Assembly (NCBI GenBank): GCA_043822125.1
Contig: JBDRCB010000006.1
Location: forward strand, 123,520-187,519
DNA length: 64,000 bases
Origin: an archaeon
GTDB lineage: Archaea > Nanobdellota > Nanobdellia > Pacearchaeales > GW2011-AR1
Reading direction: 5' to 3'
The translations under genes were made by a program, and so were the position numbers. The notes beneath the pieces are model-generated. The model was not told where the DNA came from. It ran no database searches and worked only from the letters and a program-made list of their open reading frames with translations. Position 1 is the stretch's first letter. Each line of letters starts with the position of its first letter. Of this stretch, positions 10,278 to 35,450 are shown one piece after another.

Positions 10278-12407
10278 TTATGCTACAGAAAATCTTAACA
10301 ATCTTTCTGAAAATTTAAATTCTCCAACCCAAAGGTAACTTCCATCATAAGCAAGAGAAGTCGACCAGAATAATTTGCCTTCTTTTGTACTTGGAATTCT
10401 GCCTTTTTCTCCTAAAAATATATCTGCTTGCTCTCCGAGGAGTGCATCTTCAATATCTGTCCAAATATGAACCGCATTAAATCCAGTATCTCCCACAAAT
10501 AAATGTCCATCATAAACTAAAACTCCTTGGGGAAGATTAAACATTCCAGTAAGAACATTTTGTTTTGCATTTGGAAGTTCATTAATTTTGTATATTAAAA
10601 TAGAACCCCCTTGTCCAAGAACAGAATTCACAACAAGATATTCTCCATCACTTGAAATTCTTGAAGGTCCTTCAGCATCCAAACTAAAGAGAGGATTCGA
10701 GATTCCATCAGGAATTCCTTCCCAAACATAAATCTTATTTGCTAAATTATCTGTAAGATAAAAATACTCATCGTCCATAGCAACTCCTTGTAAATCCTGA
10801 AATTCAACATTTCCAATTTTATCTCTAAAAACCAAATCAGGCAACTCCCCATTAAGAGGAAGATTATTCCAAATAAAGACTGTTTTCTTCCCAGCTAAAG
10901 TTAAAACATTGTTATAAATGGCATTATCCCAAGGAGCATCAGTAAGTATGTAAACAAAATCTGGATTAGCCCCACTTTCATCAGGCAAAGATTTCCAAAC
11001 ATATAATTTCCTGTCAAAATCAGAAGAAACAAATAAACTATTTCCATCTGTTGCAGGAACAGGATTGCTAATTATAAATTCTGTTTCAAGGGTGTTTGTG
11101 TAAATATCTGAACTTCCTATTGAAAAATCGGGTTTTTTTGAAACTGTGGGCAAATTACTATATCCGACAATTTTATTTCCATTACAAAGAGAAATGTAAA
11201 GTTTTCCTTTGACATAGACAATACTTGAACCATCCCCACTTTCTTTTCCCCCAAAATCATATATATCACCATTTATTGAAAAATCTGCTTCATCATTTTC
11301 ATCTTCAGGAAAACTATCCCAGACATATAATTTATCACTAACAACTATAAATTTTCCGTCTTCTGTAAATATCGGTCCCCACATTATTTCTCCATCTCTT
11401 TTTTCACTCTGAGCATTTGACATAAAAAAATCATACTGCTGATTATCTTGTGTTGGAAATGTTTTCCAAAAAAAGTTTCCTTGTGAAGACTTAAAAGCAT
11501 TATGGTCTCCTATTACCAAATTTGTGCCGTCACTTCCAATTGTCCTCGGTGTACCAAAATCATCTAATTTTATGACTATATCTGGCTCTTGATTATCTTG
11601 GATGGGGAAAGTATTCCAAATTAAAACTTGTGAAGAAGCAGTACTTGTAACAATCATTTTTTCTCCATTTGTCCAAACTGCCCAAGGCCAGGCAATATTT
11701 CCTTTTATGCTTGGGTCATCTAAACCCTGAAGAACAATATCTGCGGGTTTACCGTTGGTTGTGGGAAAAGTATTCCAAATAAGAATTCTGTGGTTGTAAG
11801 TATCTGCAACTATAAGGTGAATTCCATCAGTTGCAACTGATACGGGCCAGTTTAATTTGTCTAAACCACTTCCCGGATTATTTGTAAAAAAATTATCCTG
11901 CCCAAGAACAATATCTGGTTCTGAGTTCTCTTCAGGAAGAGAATTCCAAATAAGAATTCTATTGTTATTTCTATCTGCTAATATTAAATGTTCTCCATCA
12001 CTTGCAATACCCCCTTGATGATTAAAAAGCAAAGGACCCCCTGCATTGTTAAAATCAATGCCTGAAAGAAGGACATCTGCATATTGTTGATTTGAAAACC
12101 ATCCTGCCGGTTTTGTAACAACAGTTTTGTAGTTTGAATTTAATCTTTCTACAGATACTTCTTGTTGTCCAAGAGAGGGAGAATTATCTAAATTAAATTC
12201 ATCATCTTCGTAAATTCCTAAACAATCTGGTTTGTAACATCCACTATCAATATTTTGTTTTTCAAATTCATCGCAAATACCATCACAACCCCCTTTCTGG
12301 AGGGTTATATTATTTTCTTTTTCTGAATCAGAATTTAAAAGGTAAATACCAACACTTAATATTAAAACTATTGCAATAATTATTCCAATCATCACACTTC
12401 TTCTCAT
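10278..12407 (-). CDS. Secreted beta-propeller repeat protein (NHL/YVTN-like repeats, recurring xIWNxxP motif)
   Basis: Signal peptide. Repeats NNRILIWNSLPEEN, NHRILIWNTFPTTN, SQVLIWNTFPIQDN, TVFIWNNLPLNG, KIYVWEGIPDG. Confidence 0.5.
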   Translation of the reverse strand: MRRSVMIGIIIAIVLILSVGIYLLNSDSEKENNITLQKGGCDGICDEFEKQNIDSGCYKPDCLGIYEDDEFNLDNSPSLGQQEVSVERLNSNYKTVVTKPAGWFSNQQYADVLLSGIDFNNAGGPLLFNHQGGIASDGEHLILADRNNNRILIWNSLPEENSEPDIVLGQDNFFTNNPGSGLDKLNWPVSVATDGIHLIVADTYNHRILIWNTFPTTNGKPADIVLQGLDDPSIKGNIAWPWAVWTNGEKMIVTSTASSQVLIWNTFPIQDNQEPDIVIKLDDFGTPRTIGSDGTNLVIGDHNAFKSSQGNFFWKTFPTQDNQQYDFFMSNAQSEKRDGEIMWGPIFTEDGKFIVVSDKLYVWDSFPEDENDEADFSINGDIYDFGGKESGDGSSIVYVKGKLYISLCNGNKIVGYSNLPTVSKKPDFSIGSSDIYTNTLETEFIISNPVPATDGNSLFVSSDFDRKLYVWKSLPDESGANPDFVYILTDAPWDNAIYNNVLTLAGKKTVFIWNNLPLNGELPDLVFRDKIGNVEFQDLQGVAMDDEYFYLTDNLANKIYVWEGIPDGISNPLFSLDAEGPSRISSDGEYLVVNSVLGQGGSILIYKINELPNAKQNVLTGMFNLPQGVLVYDGHLFVGDTGFNAVHIWTDIEDALLGEQADIFLGEKGRIPSTKEGKLFWSTSLAYDGSYLWVGEFKFSERLLRFSVA

Positions 12408-13090
12408 TCTAAATTTACTACTTTGATAATTTTGGTTTTATCTTTAATAAAAAACTTTAATCCTGAAGCTTGTTTTGGTATTTCAAAGAGATCATAAAAT
12501 GGTTTTTCTAAATTTGGTTGAAAACCTCCAACTCGAGTGTTTGTTGCAAAAAGAATGTAGGTATTATCTTGGTCGTCTTTTAATTCTGAAACAAACTTTA
12601 AATTAAATGGCCCTGTGTTTTGATATGTAGTTTTCCCTAAGTTTGTTATTCCCCCATTCACACGAAGATAAAATCCAGAAGTAGTTATATTCTGTCCGTC
12701 ATTAACAGTTACTTGAGCCTCTTTAGTAATATTATTTATTTTCATTGAGAACACTTCTTCTCCGTAAGTTAAATTAAACGAATCTCCTAAATTGTAATAT
12801 TCATATTGTTGTTCTAGTTTAGGAGCATTAAGCCCACTAATTACTATAAGAGTGAAATAAACCACCGTGAATATAATTACTTTTAATGGTCTGCTAATTC
12901 TAAGATATTTTTTTGGAACAGCTGCAAAAATTCCAGGAATAAAAAAAAGAAGCCCTACCAATATCTGTCCTGCTTTAATTGTTACAATCGCTGAAAAGAT
13001 AGAAAATAATACTGCTAAACCAACAAATACCCAACAAGTCACAACCCAAACACCAATTTCTTTTACTGATTCTTTTTCTTGTTTTTTCAT
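12404..13090 (-). CDS. Membrane-anchored extracellular protein (hypothetical), overlaps the downstream gene by 4 nt
   Basis: Two N-terminal TM helices then a soluble domain. Operonic with 10278..12407. Confidence 0.35.
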   Translation of the reverse strand: MKKQEKESVKEIGVWVVTCWVFVGLAVLFSIFSAIVTIKAGQILVGLLFFIPGIFAAVPKKYLRISRPLKVIIFTVVYFTLIVISGLNAPKLEQQYEYYNLGDSFNLTYGEEVFSMKINNITKEAQVTVNDGQNITTSGFYLRVNGGITNLGKTTYQNTGPFNLKFVSELKDDQDNTYILFATNTRVGGFQPNLEKPFYDLFEIPKQASGLKFFIKDKTKIIKVVNLE

Positions 13091-13096
13091 TTAATT

Positions 13097-14635
13097 TTAA
13101 TCAACTACTCCTGGTTCTCCAGGCCCCTCGTCAACTCCTGCTACATCATTACTTCCTGTATCACCAGATGATAAATCTCCACTACTAACAACAGTGTTAT
13201 CAACAACATTATTTCCATCACTTGTTACAACTCCTTGCTTATCTCCATCAACAACATTATTCCCACTATCTCCTCCACCAGTTACAACTCCTTGCTTATC
13301 TCCTTGGATAACCATTCCAGAATCTCCTGTATCATGAGTTCCCTGAGCAAAAGTTCTCACTGCTATTTGATTTTTAATTTCATTCATTTCTTGCTTTATT
13401 TCTCTAGCTTTATTGCTTACTTCCAACCCTCCTTCTTCAACACCCCATTCGCCTTCATCTACTGTCCAATTACTTTCATCAATTGTATGTTGTGCAGACT
13501 TATTTTCAAATTCATCAATAACGTTTTCAACTTCTTTTCCAATAATATAATTTATTAAGCCCTCTTCGTTTTTAATTATTGTAATCTCTCCACATTTTTC
13601 CTCTAAAAAATTATCGTTTTCATCAAAACATTGTGGGATTGATTCTTTCATTGTTGGTATTTGCTCATCACATTCTCTTTCATGCCCGATATAATTTCCA
13701 TATTCATCCCAATCAGCACTTGTTTCTTTTAGATGTTCATATTGTTTGCATTCTGGCTTATCATTTTCATCCCAGCATTCTTCTGGAACTCCACATGAAT
13801 GTTCTATTTTATAGCCAATCATCTTGCTCTCTTTTTCTCTGAATAGATTAATTAAGAAATCTGGAACAAAACTTTCTGCAAAACCATCTCCTTTTTCTGG
13901 TTCCATTGATTTTAATTCATTGCAGGAACTCTCATCATCATTATACTCGCATTTGAGTGCAAGAGCAACCATTTTTTCACACTTTGCTTTTTGTTCTTCG
14001 TCAACATTATTTTCACAATTACAAGTTCCAGGATCATCTATGCAACTCCTAATTTCTAACATTAATTTAACAAACATTCTTTCCTGAAGGTCTTTTAATT
14101 TTTCTAAATCATCTTTAAGTGGTTCAGGGGCAGTTTTAGGATTACATTCTTCATCTTTTAACATTAAAGCAAAATCTTCTTTTGCTAATTCACTGCAATA
14201 TTCATAGGTTTTTTCAGTAAGAACTGCTGTAAGTTGAGTTTTTTCTTCTTCTAAAATATAATCGTCAAATTCGTCTGAAAGATTTTCCTCTTGATTTATT
14301 TTATCAACAATTTCATCAACATTTGTTTTAACCTCTTCAGAATTGTCTAAAGAAACTTTTTCTTGCACAATCTGGAGTTTCTCTTTTGCTTTTACCAGAT
14401 TTTGAATTGCTTTATCTTCTTCTTGATTTTGGATATTTATAATAGCGGAATTAATTTCTTTTTCTCTAATCTCTAACGCCAACCTAACTTCGTTATCTCC
14501 TCCAGAAAAAAATAACTTAACATTATCTACAAATCTGCCAAAACCAGAATATGTTCGAGCTTGTTCTTGAGCCAAAATCAAGGGTGAAACCAATAAGATT
14601 CCTAATAAAATTAAAACTATCATCTCTTTTTTCAT
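13097..14635 (-). CDS. Secreted acidic coiled-coil and Cys-containing protein with C-terminal GDKQGVVT/NNVVD repeats (hypothetical surface protein)
   Basis: Signal peptide MKKEMIVLILLGILLVSPLILA, paralogous to the signal peptide of 8590..10140. C-terminal Gly/Asp-rich repeats. Confidence 0.4.
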   Translation of the reverse strand: MKKEMIVLILLGILLVSPLILAQEQARTYSGFGRFVDNVKLFFSGGDNEVRLALEIREKEINSAIINIQNQEEDKAIQNLVKAKEKLQIVQEKVSLDNSEEVKTNVDEIVDKINQEENLSDEFDDYILEEEKTQLTAVLTEKTYEYCSELAKEDFALMLKDEECNPKTAPEPLKDDLEKLKDLQERMFVKLMLEIRSCIDDPGTCNCENNVDEEQKAKCEKMVALALKCEYNDDESSCNELKSMEPEKGDGFAESFVPDFLINLFREKESKMIGYKIEHSCGVPEECWDENDKPECKQYEHLKETSADWDEYGNYIGHERECDEQIPTMKESIPQCFDENDNFLEEKCGEITIIKNEEGLINYIIGKEVENVIDEFENKSAQHTIDESNWTVDEGEWGVEEGGLEVSNKAREIKQEMNEIKNQIAVRTFAQGTHDTGDSGMVIQGDKQGVVTGGGDSGNNVVDGDKQGVVTSDGNNVVDNTVVSSGDLSSGDTGSNDVAGVDEGPGEPGVVD

Positions 14636-22420: not shown

Positions 22421-22440
22421 TTAACAAAGCCAAAACCCAG
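22421..22440. repeat. Left copy of a ~21-bp direct repeat TTAACAAAGCC(C)AAAACCCAG. It forms a perfect 9-bp hairpin (AACAAAGCC-loop-GGCTTTGTT) directly after the ATPase gene
   Basis: 20/21 identity with 31470..31490. The hairpin was verified by eye. Confidence 0.6.
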
Positions 22441-22611
22441 GCTTTGTTAAATAAGTCCTAATTTTAGTTTACTTTTTTAACAGAATTTCTAAGCACTTAG
22501 AATAAAATTAAATCCAAGAAGAACCAATATAGCGACATACCAATATTTATTCACAAAATCAAACCATTCCATAAAAGAAATTATACTTACTTATTAAAAA
22601 ATGTTTCTATT

Positions 22612-22761
22612 TTATATTTTCTTTTCATCCTTACATTTAGGACATTTCTTCGCTTTACCTTTCTTGTAAGGAAAGTGTCCGTGCTTGTCATAGAACTCTA
22701 AGTCATCTGTGCATCTCTTAATTAATTCTGGTGTTACTTTCTGAAATTTTTGTTTAGTCAT
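22612..22761 (-). CDS. 49-aa zinc-ribbon-like protein translationally coupled (ATGA overlap) to the upstream nuclease gene
   Basis: Hand translation gives MTKQKFQKVTPELIKRCTDDLEFYDKHGHFPYKKGKAKKCPKCKDEKKI (C...H.H...CxxC). It is below the ORF-track size cutoff. Confidence 0.3.
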   Translation of the reverse strand: MTKQKFQKVTPELIKRCTDDLEFYDKHGHFPYKKGKAKKCPKCKDEKKI

Positions 22762-24224
22762 TTAGCAATCTCCCTCAAAGCATTAACAATTTCAACTTCT
22801 GCCAGAGTATCTAAACAGCAATATTTCTCTAAAGCATCTCTAACTTTTTGTCGGTCTTCTTCTGAAACATCATTATAAGTAACTCGTGCAAATTCAAAAC
22901 TCGCAACATCACCTTTGGAAATATCCATTCCATCGTATTTTAAATCTGAGTGCAAAGGCAGAACTTTCTTTATACTAACCGAACCTTTTTGTTTGGAATC
23001 ATAATAATAGAATTTATCAAAAACTTCCATCAAATCTTTTATTCTTGGTAATAAGTTATCTTCTATTAATTCCTTATATTCTGGGAAAAATTCAGCAAGT
23101 TCTTTCAAAACCATCTTTTCAAACCTTTGATTATAAACCAAAATGTCTCCCTTATCGCCAAGATTATCTTTCAATGATTGAATTAATGTAGGTCTTGGGT
23201 CTTTTGTCCCTTCTGCCAAGAAAGAAATGTGTTTTAATTCTCCATTTGGTTTATCTTGAATATGCAAACTAAACTGAAAAGGAATCTGTTGATAAGGTCT
23301 TGAATTATCAAATCTTGGAACTGCTGAGCTAATTGTTTCAAAATCAAAATAATAAATTGGATATTGTAAGTTATCCAAAAACTCTTTTATTTGTTTTTTG
23401 TCAATATGCTTTTCTCCATTTTCTGCAACATATTTCTGAATACTTTGTTTATCATTAAGTTTAAACCAATTTGGAATATCAACCATTTTAATTATTCCTT
23501 CTTTGTAAAGTGGAACTGCTTTTTTCTTTAAAATTCTAACAAACTCAAAAATATTATTTTCTGGTAGAGATTCCATAAATTCATCTTTGGCGATATTGTC
23601 ATATTCAATAGTTAATAAATCATCAACTTGAAACTCTGGACATTCTCCATTAATACAATCTAACATAGTCATTGCTCTTGACTCTACTTTTTCAATAGAT
23701 TCAACTTTCTCTGTAACTTCTGTCTGCATTAAAAGTTCTTTAGAATTAATTTCTCCTTGTTTCACATAATCAGGATTTACATGGAGAACAAAACATTTTC
23801 TTATTTTCAAACCTGATTTTTCATAAACATATTTTTGGAAAGCCAAATCTTCTAAGTGAATTTTCTTAGCTTTTGTTGAACTCTTAACTTCAATAATATC
23901 CCATTTATCATTTTCAACAGGCAAGAGAATATCTCCTCTTGAATATAAATCTTCATGTAGAAAACTCGCCTGAAATAAAGGAACTCTTTTTTGTGTATGT
24001 TCTTTAGTCTTTTCTACTTGTTCGTCAAATTTAAATTTAGATAAATCAACAATATCGGGAAAAAGCTGTTTAGCATATTCTTCAATTACATAACCTTCTT
24101 CAAATCGTGCCTTGTCTAACTCTGTTAGCTCAGGTATTCTTTCTTTGTCGTTTTTGTTAATCCAAAGCCACCTCAAACATTGAATCCCACAAATGTAGTC
24201 GGATTTTGTTAGCATTTTAATCAC
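22758..24224 (-). CDS. RecB/Cas4-family PD-(D/E)xK nuclease domain protein (N-terminal nuclease plus ~300-aa uncharacterised C-terminal region, DUF2779-like)
   Basis: GDILLPVENDKWDIIEVKSS (D...EVK) and FQKYVYE (QxxxY) motifs. N-terminal CGIQC and C-terminal CC cysteines. It overlaps the specificity-subunit gene by 8 nt. Confidence 0.5.
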   Translation of the reverse strand: MIKMLTKSDYICGIQCLRWLWINKNDKERIPELTELDKARFEEGYVIEEYAKQLFPDIVDLSKFKFDEQVEKTKEHTQKRVPLFQASFLHEDLYSRGDILLPVENDKWDIIEVKSSTKAKKIHLEDLAFQKYVYEKSGLKIRKCFVLHVNPDYVKQGEINSKELLMQTEVTEKVESIEKVESRAMTMLDCINGECPEFQVDDLLTIEYDNIAKDEFMESLPENNIFEFVRILKKKAVPLYKEGIIKMVDIPNWFKLNDKQSIQKYVAENGEKHIDKKQIKEFLDNLQYPIYYFDFETISSAVPRFDNSRPYQQIPFQFSLHIQDKPNGELKHISFLAEGTKDPRPTLIQSLKDNLGDKGDILVYNQRFEKMVLKELAEFFPEYKELIEDNLLPRIKDLMEVFDKFYYYDSKQKGSVSIKKVLPLHSDLKYDGMDISKGDVASFEFARVTYNDVSEEDRQKVRDALEKYCCLDTLAEVEIVNALREIAK

Positions 24225-25317
24225 TTAGAATCTCAACTTTTAAATTTATTATTCTTTGGTAATTTTCTCTAATCCTTTCTTTAATTTCCTCAACTAAATT
24301 ATATTTTTCTGCAATTTCTTTTTGTTTTTCTAAATCAAACTCTCCCTTCTCATCAATTGGAACATTTATATTTAAGATGTACAATTTTTCATCTCCAACT
24401 TTATTTTTCCAATTAAATCCTTTTTCTTTAAAGAGGATTTTTAGTTTCCATAATAAAAATTCATAGTCTAAATGATTTGATTTTTTAACTAATAATTTTG
24501 CATCAGAATTAATACTAAATTTGTGTTTTGGTCTATAGAAGATTGTTCCAGCATAAACCCCATTTGTTGTTATTTGAACACATTCTATATTGTAATCAAA
24601 AGAATTTATACTCCCGAGAATCCCATTATTTTTTGTATTTGAAGAATAAACTGGGAATTCTCCCTCATTCACATTAACATATTTTTTTGTATATTTTGAA
24701 TTTCCCTTTTTCAGTTCAAAAATTTTATCAAAGGAAAAATTTTCTTTATTTCCCTCTAAAATTATTTCTACATTTAAATTTTCTATTCTATCATAATCTA
24801 ATTTTAATTTATCTTTTATAGATTCTATTTTATTGAATTTGCTTACTATCTCCTTTTGCTTTTCCAAATCAAATTTTCCATCTTTTCTTAATGGGATTTT
24901 TATTTCTAAATTTCTTAGTTTTCCTTTGTATAGTTTATTATTCTTATTAAGTCCCAATGAAGGAAGTATGTTATTTATTTCAATTGCTACAAAAGGGAGA
25001 TAAATTTCATCAGATTTTGTTATAATTATATTTAAGACATCATTGGCATAGAAAGTTTCATCTCTAAAGAAAGCCGAATAATCTGTAGCATCCGCATTAA
25101 TAGTTATACATTCTCCAGAAAATTTTTTAGATTTTGGAACAATTTCCTTTATTTTATCCGAAACAAAACCTAATGATTCTCCTTTGTATTTTGATGAACT
25201 ATATACTGGAATATTTCCTTCTGCTTTATTTATGTCTTCTTTCCTTATTCTTTCTCCGTTGTCTACCTGAAAATACTTCTCGTCTCCTAAACTAATTTTT
25301 GTAAAAGAAGTCTCCAT
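24217..25317 (-). CDS. hsdS: Restriction-modification specificity (S) subunit with two target-recognition domains
   Basis: Duplicated conserved regions GKFDLEKQKEIVSKFNKIESIKDKLKLDYDRIENL and GEFDLEKQKEIAEKYNLVEEIKERIRENYQRIINL separate two variable domains. It overlaps the upstream methyltransferase gene. Confidence 0.75.
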   Translation of the reverse strand: METSFTKISLGDEKYFQVDNGERIRKEDINKAEGNIPVYSSSKYKGESLGFVSDKIKEIVPKSKKFSGECITINADATDYSAFFRDETFYANDVLNIIITKSDEIYLPFVAIEINNILPSLGLNKNNKLYKGKLRNLEIKIPLRKDGKFDLEKQKEIVSKFNKIESIKDKLKLDYDRIENLNVEIILEGNKENFSFDKIFELKKGNSKYTKKYVNVNEGEFPVYSSNTKNNGILGSINSFDYNIECVQITTNGVYAGTIFYRPKHKFSINSDAKLLVKKSNHLDYEFLLWKLKILFKEKGFNWKNKVGDEKLYILNINVPIDEKGEFDLEKQKEIAEKYNLVEEIKERIRENYQRIINLKVEILSD

Positions 25318-27497
25318 TATAATTCCTCCAAAATTTTACTTAGTTCCTCAAAATCATTTTGTATATTTTTTATTTCTTCTTTAAATTCTTCAATAGTTAT
25401 TACTTCCTCTTTTTTAGTTATCCCAATCTTTTCTTTCTCTTCTTTTTTCCACCATCTTTCAATAATCCAGTGTTTTTCTTCATCAAATTTATCAAAAGGA
25501 ATCATTTTACAACGAGGGTCATCAGAATCAAATGTTTTAGGGCTTCCTTTAGACTGATTAAATAAATTCTTTGCTTTATCTAAATCATTTTCTTCTATTT
25601 CAAATCTATCAACATTCAATTTTTCTCCAATATTGGAAACTAAATAAGTGAATACAGGGAAATCTTGAATTTCTTTTTCATCATTCTTTTTTGTTATTAC
25701 CAAAATATATGTTTTTTGAGGGGTATTGAAAAATGTTTTCATAGGAAGAGAGATAACTGCATTAACATAACAATATTTTTTTACTTCATCTCTCATCTTC
25801 TGATTAACAGGCAGATTAAAAATGCTATCAGGAAGTATAATAAAAGCAGTACCTTCTTTCTTTAGGTTTGATAAAATCCATTTTAAACTTAATCCTTGAA
25901 CCCCTGCACCACTATTTGAATAAAAATCCTCCAAACCTTCTTCTTCAATTTCTTTTCTTATTGTACTCATACCGCTTGTTATATAAGGCGGATTTGTCAA
26001 AATTAAATCTGGTTTATCTTCTTCGTCATCAAACATCTCTCTAAATGTTCCCAAATTTGAATCAGATAAAAAGTGAAAAGTTTCATTAATTAATTCGGAA
26101 AATTTATTGGTAAGGGTGGGATTTTTTTCAACCAAATCTGAAAGATAAATTAGCATATTTGCTTTTGCCAAAATTATTGTTCTTCTTTGTTCATCATTAT
26201 CTTCTCTTCCACTATCATAACCCAACAATTTAACACTGGAATTAATCTTGCCTCCTTTAGGTGTAAACTTATTTTTTATACTTGAAGAGATTTGGAAAGG
26301 CTCCAACACGAATCCTCCCACCCCACAAAAAGGGTCGCAGATAAATTTGGACTTGTCAATATCTGCCATCTCAACGATAGATTTAACCACTTTTCTTGGA
26401 GTGAAGAATTGCCCCAATTTACTTTTATCTTTACTCTGTTTCAAAAATGTTTCAAAAAGTTTTGTTTTAAACTCTTTTTTTATGTGTCTCAAATCTCCGA
26501 ATTTCTGATATTTTTCAATTGTATCTTTAAATAATGTTGCTTGAGACAGCACAGGGGTTCCATCTTTATTAACAAATATTGTTCCATTTATTATTCCTGT
26601 TTGGTCATTTCCAGCAGGAAATAATTCTTTTATTTTCTTTCTACACTTTGTAGCATAATGTTCAAGAACTTCTTTGTTGGGATAGCCTTCATTATACATT
26701 TTTATAAGATGATTAAAACTATAATCTCTTTGCAAAACACCCAAATCACTCAAAAACTTAAATATGAAAACCTCAACAACATTATAAAGACAAGCAGTTG
26801 GATTATCCTTTGTACTTATATAGATGCTTTGCCAAACATTTTTTGCGAGAGGTGTGGGGTCTGTCTTTTCCGTAGCTTTTAAAATTGAATTGTCTTTATC
26901 TGTTTCAAGAAGAACCCTTTCAATAGTTTGATATGTTTCTTTTGTGTCGTCATCAAATTTATTAATATCTTTTTGATTCTTTTCTTTCAAATAGAATTTC
27001 TTTTGTAGTTTCTGTTTATCATCATTTAGTATAAAAGAATAGCTTCTTTTTCTTCCAAATTCATCTTTATAAGAATTTGTTTTATCTTCATCATTTGGAT
27101 TTATCCAATGAGTAACAATACCGTCGGTGATTACCCCCATTTTTGCATTTAACACTTGGCACACATCGTTACATTGTTCAATGGCTTTTTTCTTTTGTTT
27201 GTCTGTTTGAAATTCCTTTGGTTTTTTCCATTCTATAGAAACTAAAACTTGAGGAACTTTTTTATTTCTCCTATCCACTACTAAACCATCTGCTCTCCTT
27301 TTTTCATAGTCCCCATAACTCTTTTTTTCAATAACCCTGCTTGATTTGTATTGTTTTATTGTTGTAGAATGTAACGGAAAGAATTCATACTCTCCAACAA
27401 AGATTCCTTGCTTATCTAATCCTCTTGAAATCTGCTCTTCACTTGCCATATATTTAACAGGTTTTTTCCCTTTATAGATTTTTCCCTTGCGATTCAT
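25317..27497 (-). CDS. N6-adenine DNA methyltransferase (gamma class) with a ~230-aa N-terminal extension that may be a PD-(D/E)xK endonuclease. Candidate BcgI-like Type IIB restriction-modification A subunit, or an HsdM-like protein
   Basis: QFFTPRKVV (motif X), DPFCGVGGFV (motif I FxGxG), LILTNPPY (motif IV). The N-terminus has D-x(n)-E-x-K (LVVD...VSIEWKK). There is no helicase-type HsdR anywhere in the operon. Confidence 0.7.
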   Translation of the reverse strand: MNRKGKIYKGKKPVKYMASEEQISRGLDKQGIFVGEYEFFPLHSTTIKQYKSSRVIEKKSYGDYEKRRADGLVVDRRNKKVPQVLVSIEWKKPKEFQTDKQKKKAIEQCNDVCQVLNAKMGVITDGIVTHWINPNDEDKTNSYKDEFGRKRSYSFILNDDKQKLQKKFYLKEKNQKDINKFDDDTKETYQTIERVLLETDKDNSILKATEKTDPTPLAKNVWQSIYISTKDNPTACLYNVVEVFIFKFLSDLGVLQRDYSFNHLIKMYNEGYPNKEVLEHYATKCRKKIKELFPAGNDQTGIINGTIFVNKDGTPVLSQATLFKDTIEKYQKFGDLRHIKKEFKTKLFETFLKQSKDKSKLGQFFTPRKVVKSIVEMADIDKSKFICDPFCGVGGFVLEPFQISSSIKNKFTPKGGKINSSVKLLGYDSGREDNDEQRRTIILAKANMLIYLSDLVEKNPTLTNKFSELINETFHFLSDSNLGTFREMFDDEEDKPDLILTNPPYITSGMSTIRKEIEEEGLEDFYSNSGAGVQGLSLKWILSNLKKEGTAFIILPDSIFNLPVNQKMRDEVKKYCYVNAVISLPMKTFFNTPQKTYILVITKKNDEKEIQDFPVFTYLVSNIGEKLNVDRFEIEENDLDKAKNLFNQSKGSPKTFDSDDPRCKMIPFDKFDEEKHWIIERWWKKEEKEKIGITKKEEVITIEEFKEEIKNIQNDFEELSKILEEL

Positions 27498-28762
27498 CTT
27501 ATCACCTCTTTCTCAACAACAAACTCTCCCCTAACTCCGAGTTCATTTATTTCCTGAATAATTACGCAAATGTTATGGCAAAGAATTTTTAAGAGAAGTT
27601 CGTTGATTTGTGCTGTCTTAGTTTTAGAACGAAGATTATCTTTAAACTTCGTCTTAATCATGTGGAACACCGTCTCAACATTACTCCTCTTATGATAATG
27701 TTCTAAAAACTCATCATGCTTGTAAATAAAATAATGATACATTTTTTTCCATATTCCACAACTTGCTCTTTTGCCACGAACATTTTTCTTAAAGGGAATG
27801 AAGGGGACAGCACCAACATCCTCAATCGCTTGTAAGTTCTTACGAGAACTGTAAGCCTTGTCTCCACTTACTTCGCCCACCCTAAAAGTCTTAGCTGTCT
27901 CCTCAACTAAGCGAGGCAATGAAGGACTATCATTCACCTCTCCTTCAGTAATTTCACATCCAGTTATAATGTTAGTTTTTGTTCCTGAAATTAAATGTGC
28001 CTTTAACCAAACTCTATATTTTCTTTCCTTTCCCCATTTTGTATCAAACCATCTCGCAAATCTTGAAGTAGAAAAACCTGAACTGTCAACTGCAAAATTT
28101 GTTTCAAATTCTTTTAATGGACTTGCACTAATAGAGATTAATTGTTTTAGAATTTCTGTTAAATCTTCTCTTTGCATAAAATAACAAATATTAGCATAGG
28201 TGCAAGTTGTTTCAACAAGATTCATTTCTTTTGCTATCTTGAAATCAGAGATAAATCTTCTTAGACTAAAAGTGGAATAAACTTTCAATGCAGAGGCAAA
28301 CAACATATCTGAAATTGGAAGTGTTGGTCTTCCAAATTTATATTCTGGTTGTTCAATATTACCACATAAATCTTTGAGCAATTTCATAAAAATTAATTTC
28401 TCATTTGTCTGTGCATTATTGTAAGCCTTCCAATCCTGTTGATAAGAAATTTTAACTCCTTTTGTTTCTGTTACTTGTCCTTCTTCATTTATCTGTCTCT
28501 TTACATAAAATTCTACTGCGTAAATATGCTTACACTTTTTATGCCTCATAGCACAATCAGGACAAGAACAAACTGGTCTGTCTTTCATAAGTTTCACTAC
28601 ATATTGTTTTGAAGTATTTGTTTGGGAAGTGACTCTCCAACCTTGAGAAACTTTTACTATTCTTGTTGATTTAGCCAAAAGCTTTCCTCGTTCTTCTCTT
28701 GTGAGATTCTTCCAATCTGTTTTTAATGTTTGTTCCATTTTATATAATTCGGTACCATACAT
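27494..28762 (-). mobile_element. IS4/IS5-superfamily DDE transposase with N-terminal SWIM-type zinc finger (insertion-sequence transposase gene)
   Basis: CSCPDCAMRHKKCKHIYAV (SWIM CxCxnCxH). DDE residues in VDSSGFS / GDKAYSS / Y-x2-R-x3-E-x6-K (YHKRSNVETVFHMIK, the YREK signature). Terminal inverted repeats were not identified by eye. Confidence 0.7.
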
Positions 28763-28795
28763 ACTTTATATACTTTTCGGTACCACAAAATATAC
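28749..28795. repeat. Two tandem imperfect copies of a TCGGTACCA(N)A..TAT.ACTTT element spanning the transposase start codon and the upstream region of gene 28819..29403. A third copy lies at 30912..30930
   Basis: TCGGTACCATACATACTTTATATACTTT / TCGGTACCACAAAATATACTTTAG. The third copy is GTCGGTACCATAATTTATAT immediately before the ATG of the HEPN gene. Confidence 0.45.
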
Positions 28796-28818
28796 TTTAG
28801 AAAGGTTTATATAGTTAA

Positions 28819-29403
28819 ATGGTTTTACTAAAACCATTAAGAAAAATGGTAGTAAAACCTAAGACAGAATTAAATGAGAAGGAGATATTCAGTTTATCTC
28901 GTGATGATAGAGAATTATATATCCAGAGATATATTTTAAGTTTATTAGAATCTAACAAGACCTCTGGACTAACCTTGAATACTCTCAATCGCTTGGTTAC
29001 TTTTGTTAGTAAACCTACTTTACTTAAACACCTGAATACATTAATGGCTAAAAGACAAATATACAAGGTTAAAAGAGGAAATGCGGTTGAATATTATCCA
29101 AATCATAGACCATTGCATCCTTTAATAAGCAAAATCATAACTCTTCAAAAAAAGAAATATAAATTCCAATTAATTGAATACGAAGATGGATTACAATTAT
29201 ATATACAAGAAATTAATAGAAATGTTTATGGAAAAGAAGAGGTTGCTGGAGGAATTTTGATACCCTTTACAGATTTAAACCAAATAACTACTTATCTCCA
29301 AAAAATAGAAAAAGAAAAATTAAAAATAATTGAAAATTTTAAACAGCAAAAAATAAAAGAGATAGAATCTAAAATAGATGGGGAAGAATACAATGAGTAC
29401 TAA
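28819..29403 (+). CDS. Winged-helix DNA-binding protein (putative regulator)
   Basis: wHTH-like segment YILSLLESNKTSGLTLNTLNRLVTFVSKPTLLKHLNTLMAKRQIYKVKRGNAVEYY. Its 3' end overlaps the next gene by 26 nt. Confidence 0.4.
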   Translation: MVLLKPLRKMVVKPKTELNEKEIFSLSRDDRELYIQRYILSLLESNKTSGLTLNTLNRLVTFVSKPTLLKHLNTLMAKRQIYKVKRGNAVEYYPNHRPLHPLISKIITLQKKKYKFQLIEYEDGLQLYIQEINRNVYGKEEVAGGILIPFTDLNQITTYLQKIEKEKLKIIENFKQQKIKEIESKIDGEEYNEY

Positions 29404-30715
29404 TCTAAAAAATTCAGTTTATGCAGTAAGTCAGGAATCAGATTACCTCACAAAAAAAGTCAGATACGAAAATAAGGTCAATGGAAAATTATTAATTATG
29501 CCCCTATTTTCTCCTTATATAAGAAGTTCTTTTGATTTGAAGATTCTTACCAAGTATATTTCAGATTATAATTATTCTCATAATTTAAGGGGGATTGTTG
29601 TGCCTATAGATAGAGCTGATTTATTAGATAAGGTTCCAGAAACTATGAAAAATACTTCTCTTGTGATTATAGATACACTTCCAGAAGTTTTTTATTATGG
29701 TTCTCTGAAAAAAGAAATTTATCAAAGGTATTCAAAAATTTCTGGATTACCTAAAGAAATAGTAAAGTTATTACAAACGCCAAATAATACACAAAATTGG
29801 GCTTCAAAAGAAGACCAATATTCAGAGATGATTGATTCAATTTTATTAGAAGATGATGTTAGGGTTAAACTAACTACGGCTGTAATAAATGCACAATTAG
29901 AAAAAGATGTGGATATAGTAATACCTTTCTCTCCTTTAATATTAAATGATTCAGTAAGTTTTCTTGCAACCCAAAGATTTTATGAACAGGCTCAAAGATT
30001 ATTTTTAGGAACTATAACAGATATAGACGAAGAACTTGGAAAGAGAATAGCATTACCTTTATTCCTTCATGAATCCATTCTATTTAATACAAAATTAATA
30101 AATCAAATTATTAATTATATTAATACCAATGAACATGCCTCAATTGTATTAAAAATATACTTTTCTGGAAATAAAAATGTTAAAGATTTAGATTTTGACC
30201 AAGTTATAAATTTATCAAATTTACTAAAAGCTATAGGGATTTATTCCAAATTTAATTCCTGCCCCGTACACTTACTTTGTGATTTATCTCTTGGATTAAT
30301 TTCTCTAATGTATGGATTTGATAGTTATTCCCAACCATTTAATGATAAGCAAATTGAAACAGAAGGAGCTCCAGATATAACAAAATTAAAATTAAGGAAT
30401 CCTACAATTGATTATGGAAAAATCTATAGTATGGATTTAAGGAAAAAAATTTACCACAAAAATTATGTCGCTCATATAAAATATAATAAAAATATCCTTC
30501 CATGTCCTGCAAATAAATATTGCAACAAACACATAAGTGGTTTAGATGTTTTAAATATGAAAAGACATACCTTTTGGGAACATGCAAGACTTCATAATTT
30601 AGAGAGTAAAAATTATGAGATAGATGAGATATTAGATTCAATACGGGAAAAAACTATTAGAGTCTTTAAAAGTAGATTTAATAACTTTTTTAATCAAGCA
30701 ATACTCCCAAATTAA
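29378..30715 (+). CDS. Uncharacterised 445-aa protein (no recognisable catalytic motif; C-terminal Cys/His cluster CPANKYCNKH...H...H)
   Basis: Long ORF in a low-GC genome, coupled to the upstream wHTH gene. Internal repeat-like PLFSPYI / PFSPLIL segments. Confidence 0.45.
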   Translation: MGKNTMSTNLKNSVYAVSQESDYLTKKVRYENKVNGKLLIMPLFSPYIRSSFDLKILTKYISDYNYSHNLRGIVVPIDRADLLDKVPETMKNTSLVIIDTLPEVFYYGSLKKEIYQRYSKISGLPKEIVKLLQTPNNTQNWASKEDQYSEMIDSILLEDDVRVKLTTAVINAQLEKDVDIVIPFSPLILNDSVSFLATQRFYEQAQRLFLGTITDIDEELGKRIALPLFLHESILFNTKLINQIINYINTNEHASIVLKIYFSGNKNVKDLDFDQVINLSNLLKAIGIYSKFNSCPVHLLCDLSLGLISLMYGFDSYSQPFNDKQIETEGAPDITKLKLRNPTIDYGKIYSMDLRKKIYHKNYVAHIKYNKNILPCPANKYCNKHISGLDVLNMKRHTFWEHARLHNLESKNYEIDEILDSIREKTIRVFKSRFNNFFNQAILPN

Positions 30716-30930
30716 TTCTTTGATTTTTCAATAATAATTTTTCCTTTCTCAGCCCTTACATGAAGCCTCTTACCTAAAAGACCAGAAATTTTTACAATTT
30801 CTTTTGGTATTGATGGAATCATATATTTTTTGTATTCTTTATCACCAACCTTTTTATTAGATACTTCTGCAATTTTCATTAATTAAATTAGAATAATAAT
30901 ATTTATAAATATGTCGGTACCATAATTTAT

Positions 30931-31446
30931 ATGGAAAGAACTAATGAAATGTTAAAGTTGGGCGAAGCATTTGTTAATGAGGGGATTAAAAGGTTGAAGG
31001 AATATAAAATAGAAAGACCAAATTTTATATATGACCGACACAAAATGATTATAAAAAAGAGATTTGCTGTTGTTGAGTTTATTAATGGATTAGAATTAAT
31101 TCTAAAGGCGGTTATGATAAGAAAAGGGTATAATATCTATATCTTAAAAAGGAAATTATTCAAAAAGAATGAGAAGATGTCTAACATGATTAATCCAAAA
31201 AGAACTATAGATTTATTGGATGTAATTGAATTTTTTAGAAAAAATTATCGTGATTTACCTTTCAATGGGATTGATGAACTAAGAGAAATAAGAAACCAAA
31301 TTGTCCATAAGGGAACTGAAATAGGGACAAAAAAGAGAGAATATTTTATTGATTCAATAAATTGTATAATTGGTATATATAGCCAAGAAGGAATTAAACA
31401 CAGAAAATTCTTAACACAGCTGGAGGGGTCAAAAGAACTTATTTGA
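30931..31446 (+). CDS. HEPN-domain protein (canonical R-x4-H motif)
   Basis: LREIRNQIVHKG near the C-terminus, all-helical composition, 171 aa. Confidence 0.5.
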   Translation: MERTNEMLKLGEAFVNEGIKRLKEYKIERPNFIYDRHKMIIKKRFAVVEFINGLELILKAVMIRKGYNIYILKRKLFKKNEKMSNMINPKRTIDLLDVIEFFRKNYRDLPFNGIDELREIRNQIVHKGTEIGTKKREYFIDSINCIIGIYSQEGIKHRKFLTQLEGSKELI

Positions 31447-31469
31447 CTTTTTTAACAAGGGCTACTTAT

Positions 31470-31490
31470 TTAACAAAGCCCAAAACCCAG
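31470..31490. repeat. Right copy of the ~21-bp direct repeat bracketing the 22.4-31.5 kb island (no complementary hairpin half here)
   Basis: TTAACAAAGCCCAAAACCCAG, 35 nt upstream of rps10. Confidence 0.6.
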
Positions 31491-32324: not shown

Positions 32325-32624
32325 ATGGAGCGGGATATAGGAAAAATAAAAAAGAACGACACATCAGATATTGTAATTCGTATTGATGATTTCGGAGGGA
32401 AAACAGGGCTGACAATTCGCGAATTTGTAACAAGTGATAGATATACTGGCTTCACAAAAGCAGGTGTAAGAATTTCAGCAGATGATTTTTTAAAATTCAG
32501 AGAAATGATTAATTCAATCTCCCTTGAAGATTTAAAAGATTCAGGAGAAAAAAAGCCTGAAAAACCAAAGCCGAAAAACCAAAAAAGCCTGAATAACTCT
32601 AGTGAAGACTTGCCTGATTACTGA
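32325..32624 (+). CDS. Possible PC4/YdbC-like ssDNA-binding transcriptional-coactivator-fold protein with a Lys/Pro-rich tail
   Basis: IVIRIDDFGGKTGLTIREFVTSDRYTGFTKAGVRISADDFLKFREMI resembles the PC4-like beta-sheet ssDNA-binding fold. The assignment is weak. Confidence 0.3.
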   Translation: MERDIGKIKKNDTSDIVIRIDDFGGKTGLTIREFVTSDRYTGFTKAGVRISADDFLKFREMINSISLEDLKDSGEKKPEKPKPKNQKSLNNSSEDLPDY

Positions 32625-32634
32625 TTCTAGAGTC

Positions 32635-33501
32635 TTAATTTATTTGTTGTTGGGATGGATTTGAAAAGATTTTTTCTAAAATTCTTGATTTCTCCTCACG
32701 GGTCCAGACAGTAATTTTAGCGTCTGGTTCATTAAAAGAAATGTCCCATGCTCTTTCAGGACTTAAATTTAATCTGTAAACATCAACCTTTCTTTTATCA
32801 AATCTCTCCAATGAACTTTCAATCTCTCTTTCATCATAAAAAGATTTGAAAACAACTCTGTCAAACCCCCTGTATGCTAAAAGATTATTTGTGCAGTCGT
32901 TGCATGGAAAAATAGTTGCATAAACAGTAAAACGGTTTAAGTTTAGTCTTGTTATATGCGAGGCAGCATTTTGCTCTGAATGAGTTCCCCAGCATTTTCC
33001 TGTTCCATGAGTAATTCCATATTTCTCTCCTGTTGCTCTTTCTTTTCTGCAGTAGCCTAAATCCAAACAGCTCTCTAAACCAGGAGCAGCACCATTATAC
33101 CCGCTTCCAAGTTCAAGATTAGTCTTACTATCAACAATAACAGTTCCTGCATGAACATTCAAACAAGAAGACCTTCTCGAAGTATCAATTGCCTTTAACA
33201 TAAAATATTCGTCCCACGACGGACGAATATCATTTCTTTCTTTTAAATTTACCATCCCAAAATCAGTAACAAGAGTTTCCCCATCTCTCTGAAAAACCTC
33301 TGTGTGTTCATAATCTCCTAAAATAACATCACCACATTTTAATGCATATTTTGTTTTCAGTCTAGGTTCAAAAGATATCCCCACAGATTCTTCTTTTAAT
33401 TTAATAATCTCAATCCTGCCTTTTAATTTTTTATTAGACTTCTTTAAATGTTTTAAAACAGAATCTAACTTTTTATATATGTTAATCATACATAAATACA
33501 A
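32635..33501 (-). CDS. dCMP deaminase (CDA-fold, ComEB-like) with a ~95-aa N-terminal extension of unknown function
   Basis: RPSWDEYFMLKA...HAGTVIV, zinc ligands HSE...PCNDC. Confidence 0.7.
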   Translation of the reverse strand: MYLCMINIYKKLDSVLKHLKKSNKKLKGRIEIIKLKEESVGISFEPRLKTKYALKCGDVILGDYEHTEVFQRDGETLVTDFGMVNLKERNDIRPSWDEYFMLKAIDTSRRSSCLNVHAGTVIVDSKTNLELGSGYNGAAPGLESCLDLGYCRKERATGEKYGITHGTGKCWGTHSEQNAASHITRLNLNRFTVYATIFPCNDCTNNLLAYRGFDRVVFKSFYDEREIESSLERFDKRKVDVYRLNLSPERAWDISFNEPDAKITVWTREEKSRILEKIFSNPSQQQIN

Positions 33502-34034: not shown

Positions 34035-34910
34035 ATGGTAGAAGTAAGAAAAGAAGATTTAGAAAGAGTTAAGGAGCAGATTTATTCTATAAGAGAAAAG
34101 ATTGCTGAAATACAAGGACCAAATTCTGTAGGAGAGAAAGATTTTGTTTATATTGAAGCCAGAGATTTAGATGATTTATATTTCCAGTCAGTAATGGGGG
34201 CACTAAAGCATGGAGAATTAAATCCTGTTGAAGAAGGAAGTCATGCTGGCTCAATTAGATTAGAATTCCCTGGATTTGGTTGTTGTGTTAAAAATCCTAC
34301 TACAAGACCTTTAGCTCCAAGTACTAGAGAAGGTATACCTGTAGCAACAGATGATGAAGCAATTCATAAATATTTTCAGAATTATTTATTAGATGGAAGA
34401 TTAGAACCTAATGAGCATTATAGATATAGTACTTGGATTTCAGGTATTCAAAATCCTAATATTCCATTAGAACATAAAGGAATTCCAAGAGGAACAAGAC
34501 TTAATCAATTAGAATGGTGTGTTAAACATTTTACAGAAAAAGGTTATGGAACAAATCATTGTGCAATAACCGTCGGATGTGCAGAAGGATTACAAAGGTA
34601 TGATTGGCCTTATAAAAATGAATCTGAAAGAGGAACTACAGAATGTTTAAGAGGGATTTCATTAAAAATAAGAAAAGAAAATCAACTAGATGTAAGCACT
34701 TTCTGGAGATCATGGGATTTATATAACGGCTTTCCAGAAAATCTTGGAGGATTTGCTCATTTAATAGAATATACTGCTAATCTAATAAATGCAACAAAAA
34801 AAGAAGAACAATCTGAAGTTAAACCAGGACGACTTTATGCTTATAGCGACGGACTTCATATTTATTCCCACAGCCTTGATTTAGCTAAACTTTGGGCTAA
34901 TATAAATTAA
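34035..34910 (+). CDS. thyA: Thymidylate synthase (ThyA-family, divergent, with ~60-aa N-terminal extension). dUMP/dCMP hydroxymethylase-type activity cannot be excluded
   Basis: The catalytic Cys context NHCAITV corresponds to PCH. RSWDLYNGFPENLGGFAHLIEYTANL corresponds to [30 protein letters not shown] corresponds to GDTHLY. Confidence 0.65.
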   Translation: MVEVRKEDLERVKEQIYSIREKIAEIQGPNSVGEKDFVYIEARDLDDLYFQSVMGALKHGELNPVEEGSHAGSIRLEFPGFGCCVKNPTTRPLAPSTREGIPVATDDEAIHKYFQNYLLDGRLEPNEHYRYSTWISGIQNPNIPLEHKGIPRGTRLNQLEWCVKHFTEKGYGTNHCAITVGCAEGLQRYDWPYKNESERGTTECLRGISLKIRKENQLDVSTFWRSWDLYNGFPENLGGFAHLIEYTANLINATKKEEQSEVKPGRLYAYSDGLHIYSHSLDLAKLWANIN

Positions 34911-34913: not shown

Positions 34914-35450
34914 TCAAACCTGAAACTCTCTCTCGCCCTGAGTAGAAACTCTTCCACCCTGCCACTGTCCACGGTATTCTGAAAAATTTTCTCCTGTTTT
35001 AAAAAAAAGAATATGAACAAATCTTGCTCCAATTTCAATTTTAAAATTATTTTTTCCCAAATTAGCCATCCCAAAAGTCAGCTCCCCTGAATATCCTGGT
35101 GAAGCTGTTGCAGTAAATAAACCAACACCGCATCTCTGCAAAGTTGAACGCGGACGAAAAATAGCAGCAATATCCGACGGTAAATTGACTTTTTCTATTG
35201 TTTTCACCAGCACAAAATCTCCTGGCTTAAGAATAAAATCTTTCTGCTCCCCAAATTTAGCAACAGAACCAGCCCGCGGGGTGTGCCTTTCAACCTCTCC
35301 TAAAAATGCCTCACCGCCCTCAATAACAAAAACTTCTCCTAATCTCAAATCAAAACCCGAACCTTCTGGATTTTCTAATTCACGCTGTGATAAATTTTCA
35401 ACAAGTTTATTTTCTCTTACTAACCTCAACAGCTCTTTTGTTCCTAGCAT
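34914..35450 (-). CDS. dcd: dCTP deaminase (dUTPase superfamily)
   Basis: LKPGDFVLVKTIEKVNLPSDIAAIFRPRSTLQRCGVGL...ASPGYSGELTFGMANLG is typical of Dcd. Confidence 0.85.
   Translation of the reverse strand: MLGTKELLRLVRENKLVENLSQRELENPEGSGFDLRLGEVFVIEGGEAFLGEVERHTPRAGSVAKFGEQKDFILKPGDFVLVKTIEKVNLPSDIAAIFRPRSTLQRCGVGLFTATASPGYSGELTFGMANLGKNNFKIEIGARFVHILFFKTGENFSEYRGQWQGGRVSTQGEREFQV

Follow-up and report, generated by a model that had tools for sequence, protein, structure and literature searches.

Enzymes with the fold of tRNA-guanine transglycosylase (TGT) serve in tRNA modification, and more recently they were also recognised in Dpd DNA modification, in type IV cyclic oligonucleotide-based antiphage signaling systems (CBASS), and in bacteriophage exclusion (BREX)-related capture (BRC). 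All three catalytic Asp residues are invariant in TGTs and in DpdA, and mutation of D95 or D256 inactivates DpdA (PMC10164549). In addition, the DUF3644 family overlaps the EC042_2821 family of HEPN proteins, which was described in restriction-modification (R-M) operons (PMC3710099), and HEC-08, a DUF3644 protein, is a validated defence gene dependent on the His of its motif (bioRxiv 10.1101/2024.01.29.577857). Here, we analysed a stretch of 64,000 nucleotides from an archaeal metagenome-assembled genome (MAG; contig JBDRCB010000006.1), hereafter the window, with a GC content of about 32%. Within it, a 9,041-bp DDE transposon carries a pair of genes for a small partner protein and a protein of 445 amino acids (aa), and profile searches together with structure prediction placed the latter in a new, rare branch of the TGT superfamily. 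The pair represents a known superfamily, but a branch of it that has not been described before and a genetic arrangement that is new.

A sequence-only reading of this DNA had joined three open reading frames (ORFs) into one candidate defence or toxin unit, consisting of a winged helix-turn-helix (wHTH) protein, the 445-aa protein, and a HEPN protein. The positions of the three ORFs proved accurate (Table 1), as did the overlap of the first two, which share 26 nt (28819–29403 and 29378–30715). Because conserved homologues exist for each of them (194, 445, and 171 aa), all three are real genes. However, they do not form one unit, since the HEPN gene and the pair occur apart in other loci (designated below by L and a number). 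The trio merges two unrelated cargo modules of one transposon of a DPANN-type archaeon: module A (28803–30879) comprises the partner, TGT-like, and AbrB-like genes, and module B comprises the HEPN gene with modification (M) and specificity (S) genes of the R-M type. The statement that this was not a named system held for the partner and large-protein pair, which had no match in Pfam, NCBIfam, PHROG, or PADLOC.

The 445-aa protein had been described as free of recognisable enzymatic motifs, and as a single sequence it indeed gave zero matches against Pfam, NCBIfam, PHROGs, and PADLOC; the identical protein in the databases, from an archaeon MAG, is annotated as hypothetical only. The relationship to TGT emerged only with a profile of 40 sequences, which matched ArcTGT (PDB 1iq8) with E = 4.9e-10 in the Zn-site region and, more weakly, in the N-terminal TPxxMP motif. 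A full-length hhalign comparison with seven bacterial Tgt sequences gave a probability of 82% (E = 1.2e-6) over 342 columns. The AlphaFold model built from the 40-sequence alignment was confident, with a predicted local distance difference test score (pLDDT) of 93 and a predicted template modelling (TM) score of 0.92. In a Foldseek search of the PDB with this model, the top match was bacterial TGT 6rkq (E = 1e-7, TM 0.55/0.64), and the remaining matches were generic TIM barrels only (E ≥ 9e-4). An initial model from 10 sequences was poor (pLDDT 67) and was replaced; in its fold search, TGT and human QTRT1 had already ranked first. Curated models of the superfamily scarcely reached the family: Pfam TGT matched one of the 40 members below threshold (E = 0.004), and the PADLOC model for DpdA matched none of the 40.

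In the model, the barrel and the Zn region cover all 445 aa, the N-terminal beta-lid is retained, and the C1, C2, and PUA tRNA-binding domains are absent. The segments PLFSPYI and PFSPLIL, once taken for repeat-like, are not repeats; they align with the TPxFMPV and AFDECTP beta-strand motifs of the TGT TIM barrel. The C-terminal Cys/His cluster was correctly noticed, although its nature is that of a remnant TGT zinc site. Because the lid, which is absent in DpdA, and, in about two thirds of the members, the putative Zn site, which is absent in Cap10 of type IV CBASS, are kept, the family looks derived from tRNA-type TGT. The family is rare: we found 10 close homologues in 5.8 billion proteins and 59 clusters (50% identity) in 1.84 billion proteins. 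Pattern scans of GTDB representative genomes and IMG/VR and tblastn searches of phages and plasmids found no relatives, and a metagenome scan added two loci only. In most members, the amino-acid composition is AT-rich, as is typical of DPANN-like genomes. Given the GC content of the window and the origin of the nearest named homologue of the 445-aa protein, a Nanoarchaeota MAG, the host is not a haloarchaeon, the kind of host that had been suggested for assays. No canonical TGT was found in the window or in any locus examined.

Three alignments agreed on the register of the active site, in which residue columns were counted over the 40 members. The general acid/base Asp is kept: D99 aligns with Escherichia coli (Ec) Tgt D89 (TDSGG motif), with Zymomonas mobilis (Zm) D102, and with D95 of ArcTGT and DpdA, and is present in 37 members. 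At the nucleophile column (residue 318, in GFDSYSQP; equivalent to Ec D264, Zm D280, and DpdA D256), the members have Ser (20), Ile (7), Val (7), Cys (4), or Thr (2), and none has Asp. The guanine-recognition column (residue 185; equivalent to Ec D143, Zm D156, and DpdA D130) is occupied by Thr (15), Ser (9), Ala (7), Gly (4), and Val (3). Because the nucleophile and the guanine-reading Asp are both replaced, the family has the TGT fold but falls outside the catalytic TGTs. E103 (36/40), D179 (32/40), and K259 (35/40) are conserved polar residues specific to the family, as is D315 (37/40), whose position is conserved in Tgt as well. The predicted Zn ligands C376, C382, and H406 occur in 26, 25, and 27 members, respectively, and a third Cys in 13 only; they were lost jointly in the P0007–P0009 subclade (Cys to Ser, Cys to Ser, and His to Thr), and about one third of the members are without the site.

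These residues bear on the question of whether the protein could act in the manner of DpdA, putting 7-deazaguanine or another base into the DNA of the element or the host under wHTH targeting, as self-marking or anti-restriction, with D315 or E103 serving as the nucleophile. In Dpd, TGT homologues act on DNA as modifying enzymes, and the same is predicted for BRC systems; the TGT fold with a putative Zn site, the R-M genes among the cargo, and the conserved carboxylates D99, E103, and D315 are all consistent with base exchange of this kind. However, the two Asp residues that are missing here never vary in TGT and DpdA and are present in Cap10 as well, the beta-lid is a feature that DpdA lacks, the DpdA model matched no member, and none of DpdB, DpdC, QueC, QueD, QueE, or FolE is encoded nearby. 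We regard a DpdA-like base exchange as distinctly unlikely.

The TGT-like gene has a constant companion. In every locus examined, a partner gene of 150–194 aa lies immediately upstream of it, and in nine loci the two genes either overlap or stand no more than 13 nt apart. Partner proteins are homologous throughout the family, with identities of 24–68% across clades, and diverge in parallel with the TGT-like proteins (68/61, 54/48, 45/46, and 25/21% identity for partner/TGT-like protein). The conserved unit, as read from these gene layouts, is the translationally coupled pair of partner and TGT-like protein. In the window, translation of the partner probably starts from an ATG at 28846, which corresponds to the first residue of its homologues, rather than at 28819. 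As to its identity as a wHTH protein, only matches below threshold were obtained, at residues ~36–103: Rpc34 (0.004–0.009), MarR_2 (0.0045), SarA/Rot (0.002), ScpB (0.004), and SdpR (0.013), and in addition HTH_20. A profile search of the PDB with the partner alignment gave no sequence match. The protein is a probable wHTH DNA-binding protein.

The mobility of the cassette and the structure of the transposon are established. The island had been called repeat-bounded, and its limits are sharper than described, with perfect 17-bp terminal inverted repeats (TIRs) and a 9-bp target-site duplication (TSD; Table 1). The element has the attributes of a DDE cargo transposon, namely TIRs, a TSD, a transposase, and a second copy at a different site. 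That copy, in L016 from a JGI metagenome, has other flanks (a Na/Pi cotransporter and LemA) and no pair. In the blastn comparison of the window with L013 and L016, homology ended at 28802 and restarted at 30724, with 61 bp in this place in the sister element. The pair is a passenger in four elements with TIRs and perfect 9-bp TSDs (window, L004, L003, and L029), which belong to two transposase families; the L029 insertion adjoins a tRNA-Arg gene. Outside these four elements with verified ends, a transposase also adjoins the pair in L012 and L017, whereas L001 is the only locus with the pair in a plainly chromosomal setting. A 158-nt terminal repeat in L012 was not counted as a transposon end, as it duplicates a flanking gene fragment and is possibly an assembly artefact.

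A housekeeping role, in which the protein would be a divergent ArcTGT or a QTRT2-like subunit acting in tRNA modification and lying near insertion sequences by chance, has the best sequence match, ArcTGT, on its side, as well as the housekeeping neighbours in L001 and L017 (such as PolB, Trm56, Rpr2, and RNase Z-like genes); no convincing TIRs were found around the pair in these two loci. Against it stand the extreme rarity and patchiness of the family, its four occurrences inside elements bounded by TIRs and TSDs, its presence and absence between near-identical elements, and the loss of the catalytic Asp and of the C1, C2, and PUA domains. Such a role is extremely improbable.

Several further observations were made on the ends of these elements. 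Direct repeats of the form TTT(A/G)ACTTTTTTAACA lie inside both ends of the window element (22464–22482 and 31439–31457), are conserved in L016, and could be binding sites of the transposase. At 22421–22456, the flank, the TSD, and the left TIR form a hairpin, AACAAAGCC-AAAACCCA-GGCTTTGTT, because the sequence of the left flank is by chance similar to the TIR end; a preference for TIR-like target sequences may be the reason. In L012, an inverted duplication at the contig ends (1–158 and 3694–3851, 97% identical) of a Zn-ribbon gene fragment, aIF2-beta-like by eye, surrounds an IS240 transposase and the pair, and it may be either an assembly artefact or genuine.

The HEPN assignment of the 171-aa protein was confirmed. 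It contains the motif LREIRNQIVHKG and scored 33.7 bits with Pfam DUF3644 against a cut-off of 27.6; R121, N122, Q123, and H126 were invariant in 24 homologues, most of which carry a precomputed PF12358 assignment. A PDB profile search with the HEPN alignment was uninformative. The gene is not, as had been thought, the next one after the pair, because a 55-aa ORF on the minus strand (30712–30879) intervenes. In L015, M, S, and HEPN genes form a collinear operon on the same strand, with an M protein 73% identical to that of the window, and in the L016 transposon a HEPN protein 94% identical to that of the window accompanies M/S genes. Thus, the HEPN gene belongs with the R-M-type cargo, being present with M/S and without the pair in both loci, and taken alone it merely adds an ordinary member to a known family.

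This distribution also bears on the original proposal of a single three-gene defence or toxin system, with a wHTH regulator, a 445-aa effector, and a HEPN RNase. The three genes are close together in the window, and a distant clade, described below, couples the pair to a membrane protein and a DUF4145 protein of the HEPN clan; in L007, an AIPR/AbiU-like gene follows the pair. However, the HEPN gene occurs without the pair in the same transposon of L016 and in the L015 operon, L001, L003, L004, and L029 have the pair but no HEPN gene, the two are set apart in the window by an ORF on the other strand and by a promoter region, and DUF3644 HEPN proteins are already known from R-M operons (PMC3710099). 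The three-gene system is very unlikely.

The other cargo of the window element justified its description as a mobile island loaded with defence genes: besides the HEPN gene, it includes the R-M-type M and S genes and a DUF2779/Cas4-like nuclease. The minus-strand genes between 22758 and 28762 overlap (the stop of the transposase gene and the start of M by 4 nt, as also in L016; M/S by 1 nt; S/DUF2779 by 8 nt), and the transposase thus appears to be co-transcribed with the R-M-type cargo. The weak HSDR_N-like region in M and the lack of a separate R gene suggest a BcgI-like/type IIB or otherwise atypical R-M system. R-M genes accompany the pair as cargo in the window and in L029. The L016 element differs in two respects: it has an additional gene at 2539–3615, whose DUF4268 product includes a nuclease region resembling NucS_C, and its M and S are fused into one protein of 1,109 aa, whereas those of the window are separate, with low similarity in the S region; the cargo of this transposon family has evidently been shuffled. 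The L015 operon (3980–6055) adjoins a large serine recombinase (Resolvase, Recombinase, and Zn_ribbon_recom), so the R-M/HEPN module also rides a different kind of mobile element.

The ORF convergent to the TGT-like gene encodes an AbrB/SpoVT/MazE-like protein. The closer clade (window, L003, L028, and L029) has such an ORF of 52–58 aa after the pair, and the ORFs at the same position in L003, L028, L029, and L016 are 52–66% identical to that of the window, although the pair is absent from L016. Three copies of the motif TCGGTACCA were counted in 64 kb, where 0.02 would be expected, and all of them lie within the two divergent promoter regions of the island. Related palindromes were found at matching sites in L003 (~7360–7410 and ~9500) and L029 (4042 and 6186), including a perfect palindrome, TTCAGGTACCTGAA, at the equivalent site of L029. 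Since both this motif and an AbrB-like gene are found in L016, where the pair is absent, the likelier binder of TCGGTACCA is the AbrB-like protein. Palindromes of the TCGGTACC type are probably operators of the AbrB-like regulator in promoters shared with the transposase.

The small regulator and the layout of the pair raise the question of a toxin-antitoxin (TA)-like addiction module that would stabilise the transposon, with a TGT-fold toxin damaging, for example, tRNA or DNA bases and with the wHTH partner or the AbrB-like protein as antitoxin and autorepressor. A small upstream DNA-binding gene overlapping a larger enzyme-fold gene is the type II TA layout, and HipBA is analogous in size. 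The pair is the only substantial cargo of the minimal transposons of L003 and L004 (3.3–4.5 kb), lies divergent to the transposase, and shares operator-like motifs with it. Small proteins of the AbrB/MazE fold are classic antitoxins, with a weak MazE match here, and according to PMC7157771, TA pairs are integral to Tn3 transposition modules. However, the partner, with its 150–194 aa, would be a large antitoxin, the AbrB-like gene converges on the pair instead of sharing an operon with it and persists in L016 in the absence of the pair, and an active site without a nucleophile argues against a potent enzyme. A TA-like addiction module of this kind is unlikely.

The distant clade comprises proteins 21% identical to that of the window, on contigs with 64% GC, and keeps the core of partner and TGT-like genes; nucleotide homology shared between the loci stops at the cassette edges. 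In L008, L009, and L010, the pair heads a tight operon of four genes, in which a translationally coupled membrane protein is followed by a protein with a Zn-ribbon and DUF4145 (PD-T7-4-like, of the HEPN clan). In L007, an AIPR/AbiU-like gene is found downstream of the pair instead; its product was not counted as a HEPN protein because it appears truncated and shows no clear Rx4-6H motif. SIR2_2, SLFN_AlbA_2, and AAA_21 genes are among the neighbours in L007, L008, and L010, and further neighbours in this clade are Peptidase_M78, a pair of Prok-E2 and ThiF, and MTES_1575 together with a giant helicase. By their predicted gene content, these loci are dense defence islands, and nothing else gives real support to a connection of the pair with HEPN-type effectors. 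The Prok-E2_E and ThiF genes and those for SIR2_2, SLFN_AlbA_2, and AAA_21 were located at 984–2727 in L007 and at 3531–4793, 12463–13407, and 15370–16536 in L008.

With the fold, the substitutions, the pairing, the cassette edges, and the HEPN/R-M linkage as observations, we infer a substrate, a chemistry, and a biological role for the pair: it would be a mobile conflict or addiction module aimed at nucleic-acid bases. For this reading, including its mechanism, we estimate a probability of roughly 45%. The partner would tether or regulate the TGT-fold subunit on nucleic acid, and the subunit would flip out a base, possibly a modified one. The flipped base would then be bound or hydrolytically removed, not exchanged through the canonical double displacement, and the carrier element would benefit through defence, anti-restriction, or addiction. 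A more specific version is possible, if on the unlikely side. In it, the pair, with or without the AbrB-like gene, would be a mobile conflict system not described before, in which a TGT barrel works without covalent Asp catalysis, for instance as a wHTH-targeted hydrolytic glycosylase or sensor of 7-deazaguanine or other modified bases in the nucleic acid of invader or host, forming the core cargo of archaeal DDE transposons and having spread to bacterial defence islands, where it would be wired to HEPN-type effectors.

Several points weigh against a base-directed conflict module. Two of the three catalytic Asp residues are lost, and by analogy with QTRT2 the protein may be a non-catalytic binding subunit. 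Genes for 7-deazaguanine biosynthesis were not found near any copy, and the wHTH assignment of the partner comes solely from several sub-threshold matches. In L001, the pair sits among housekeeping genes (PolB, TIM, and AGOG) with no transposase or TIRs, and the defence-island context derives from only about two independent GC-rich settings.

If the base-directed module is correct, it would be a fourth and mechanistically different recruitment of the TGT fold, which keeps the barrel, the lid, and the putative Zn site, drops the nucleophile, and has an obligate partner, and it could bring to light a novel chemistry of nucleic-acid bases or a sensor of their modification. In addition, the loci document precisely bounded cargo transposons of DPANN archaea, complete with TIRs, TSDs, and alleles that differ in presence or absence of cargo. 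These elements shuffle modules of the R-M, HEPN, and TGT-like kinds, and they provide a concrete mobility route for defence genes in genetically intractable organisms.

The island is flanked by housekeeping genes (ribosomal protein S10, SerRS, a P-type ATPase, a Na/H exchanger, and dCMP and dCTP deaminases). Between the genes for dCMP deaminase (32635–33501) and dCTP deaminase (34914–35450), a 291-aa ORF (34035–34910) without a Pfam match has thymidylate-synthase-like motifs by eye (HCAIT, RSWDLYNGFPEN) and may encode a divergent pyrimidine-modifying enzyme. A 99-aa ORF at 32325–32624 has a sub-threshold match to PC4 (ssDNA-binding transcriptional coactivator p15; E = 5e-4) and a tail rich in lysine and proline.

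Table 1. Features of the window transposon and structure of the related elements (positions are those of the respective locus).
Locus	Feature	Position	Strand	Evidence or structure	Cargo
Window	Left 9-bp TSD CAAAACCCA	22431–22439	.	Same 9-mer outside both TIRs	
Window	Left TIR GGCTTTGTTAAATAAGT	22440–22456	+	Perfect 17-nt inverted repeat with 31464–31480	
Window	DUF2779 protein, Cas4-like N-terminus	22758–24224	-	Pfam DUF2779 E = 1e-42; PADLOC Cas4 ~8e-4; conserved in L016	
Window	R-M specificity (S) subunit	24217–25317	-	Pfam Methylase_S E = 1.8e-19; PADLOC Specificity_I	
Window	N6-adenine DNA methyltransferase (M), weak N-terminal HSDR_N-like region	25317–27497	-	Pfam N6_Mtase E = 2e-29; HSDR_N_2 E = 0.0034, below threshold	
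Window	SWIM zinc finger + DDE_Tnp_1 transposase	27494–28762	-	Pfam DDE_Tnp_1 E = 2e-24, SWIM E = 1e-4; identity 91% to L016, 48% to L004, 39% to L017	
Window	Two TCGGTACCA copies, candidate operator, divergent transposase/partner promoter region	28749–28785 (28749–28757, 28777–28785)	+	Motif count	
Window	Presence/absence cassette, 1,921 bp, own TATA-like box	28803–30723	+	blastn against L013/L016	Partner and TGT-like genes
Window	Partner protein: probable wHTH, beta-rich middle with GGILIP motif, C-terminal coiled-coil-like tail	28819–29403	+	Conserved upstream of the TGT-like gene	
Window	Predicted TGT-superfamily TIM-barrel protein, remnant Zn site (C376, C382, H406), no nucleophile Asp	29378–30715	+	Model, Foldseek, profile, hhalign	
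Window	AbrB/SpoVT/MazE-like ORF, 55 aa, convergent to the TGT-like gene	30712–30879	-	52–66% identical ORFs elsewhere; weak Pfam MazE_antitoxin E = 0.03	
Window	Third TCGGTACCA copy, divergent AbrB-like/HEPN promoter region	30914–30922	+	Motif count	
Window	HEPN protein, DUF3644 family, 171 aa; R-M-type cargo, not part of the pair	30931–31446	+	DUF3644 above gathering score; RNQIxH invariant	
Window	Right TIR	31464–31480	-	L016 homology ends exactly here	
Window	Right 9-bp TSD CAAAACCCA	31481–31489	.	Matches left copy	
Window	Whole element, 9,041 bp	22440–31480		SWIM + DDE_Tnp_1; perfect 17-bp TIR; TSD CAAAACCCA	DUF2779, S, M, pair, AbrB-like, HEPN
L016	Whole element, 8,060 bp	2491–10550		Same transposase (91%); TIR identical to window; TSD TTAGAAACG	DUF4268, DUF2779, fused M-S, AbrB-like, HEPN; no pair
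L004	Whole element, 4,525 bp	5612–10136		Same transposase family (48%); related 18-bp TIR; TSD GTAACAAAG	Pair and small ORFs
L003	Whole element, 3,311 bp	6253–9563		IS240-type transposase; 24-bp TIR; TSD GCTTTTTCA	Pair, AbrB-like
L029	Whole element, ~6.1 kb	122–6233		IS240-type transposase (58% to L003); ~22-bp TIR; TSD CGATTGGGT	M, S, pair, AbrB-like

Comparison with ArcTGT (1iq8) and bacterial Tgt (6rkq) demonstrated that the TGT-like family shares with them the (beta/alpha)8 barrel, the N-terminal beta-lid, a TPxFMP-type motif, the GxDxF strand, the C-terminal Zn subdomain, an LHNL-type His helix, and the general acid/base Asp. Unlike these enzymes, it is without the nucleophile, the guanine-reading Asp, and the C1, C2, and PUA domains, and about one third of its members have lost all Zn ligands together; it is also mobile, has an obligate small partner gene, and stays below the Pfam TGT threshold. 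Like the pair, DpdA is a TGT-superfamily enzyme in genome conflict with a partner, DpdB, and a Zn site, whereas DpdA keeps all three catalytic Asp residues and has no N-terminal lid (PMC10164549). Families for DpdB, DpdC, or preQ0 biosynthesis were not found among the neighbours in any locus. Cap10 of type IV CBASS is likewise a TGT-family protein with a defence role outside tRNA, in a tight complex with a partner from the same operon, but it retains the nucleophile D248 and the base-reading residues D73, D122, and K154 and has no Zn site (bioRxiv 10.1101/2025.04.06.647259). In contrast to type IV CBASS, the window has no CD-NTase gene and no gene for a QueC-like Cap9. The eukaryotic QTRT2 is a non-catalytic TGT fold used as a binding subunit (bioRxiv 10.1101/2025.04.06.647259); it pairs with a catalytic TGT paralogue, whereas no second TGT-like gene lies beside the family of the window.

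The HEPN protein resembles the DUF3644/EC042_2821-type proteins, which include HEC-08, in passing the DUF3644 threshold, in its invariant Rx4H motif, and in its location among R-M genes, as described for this family, but differs in being a stand-alone minimal domain in an archaeal transposon, without the reported wHTH, REase, or Zn-ribbon fusions. Finally, the elements resemble passenger-carrying DDE transposons such as those of the Tn3 family with TA cargo (PMC7157771) in having TIRs, a TSD, a transposase, and accessory cargo beside the transposase promoter. They differ from those transposons in their SWIM + DDE_Tnp_1 and IS240-like transposases, in their archaeal hosts, and in their cargo, a TGT-like pair with or without R-M and HEPN genes.

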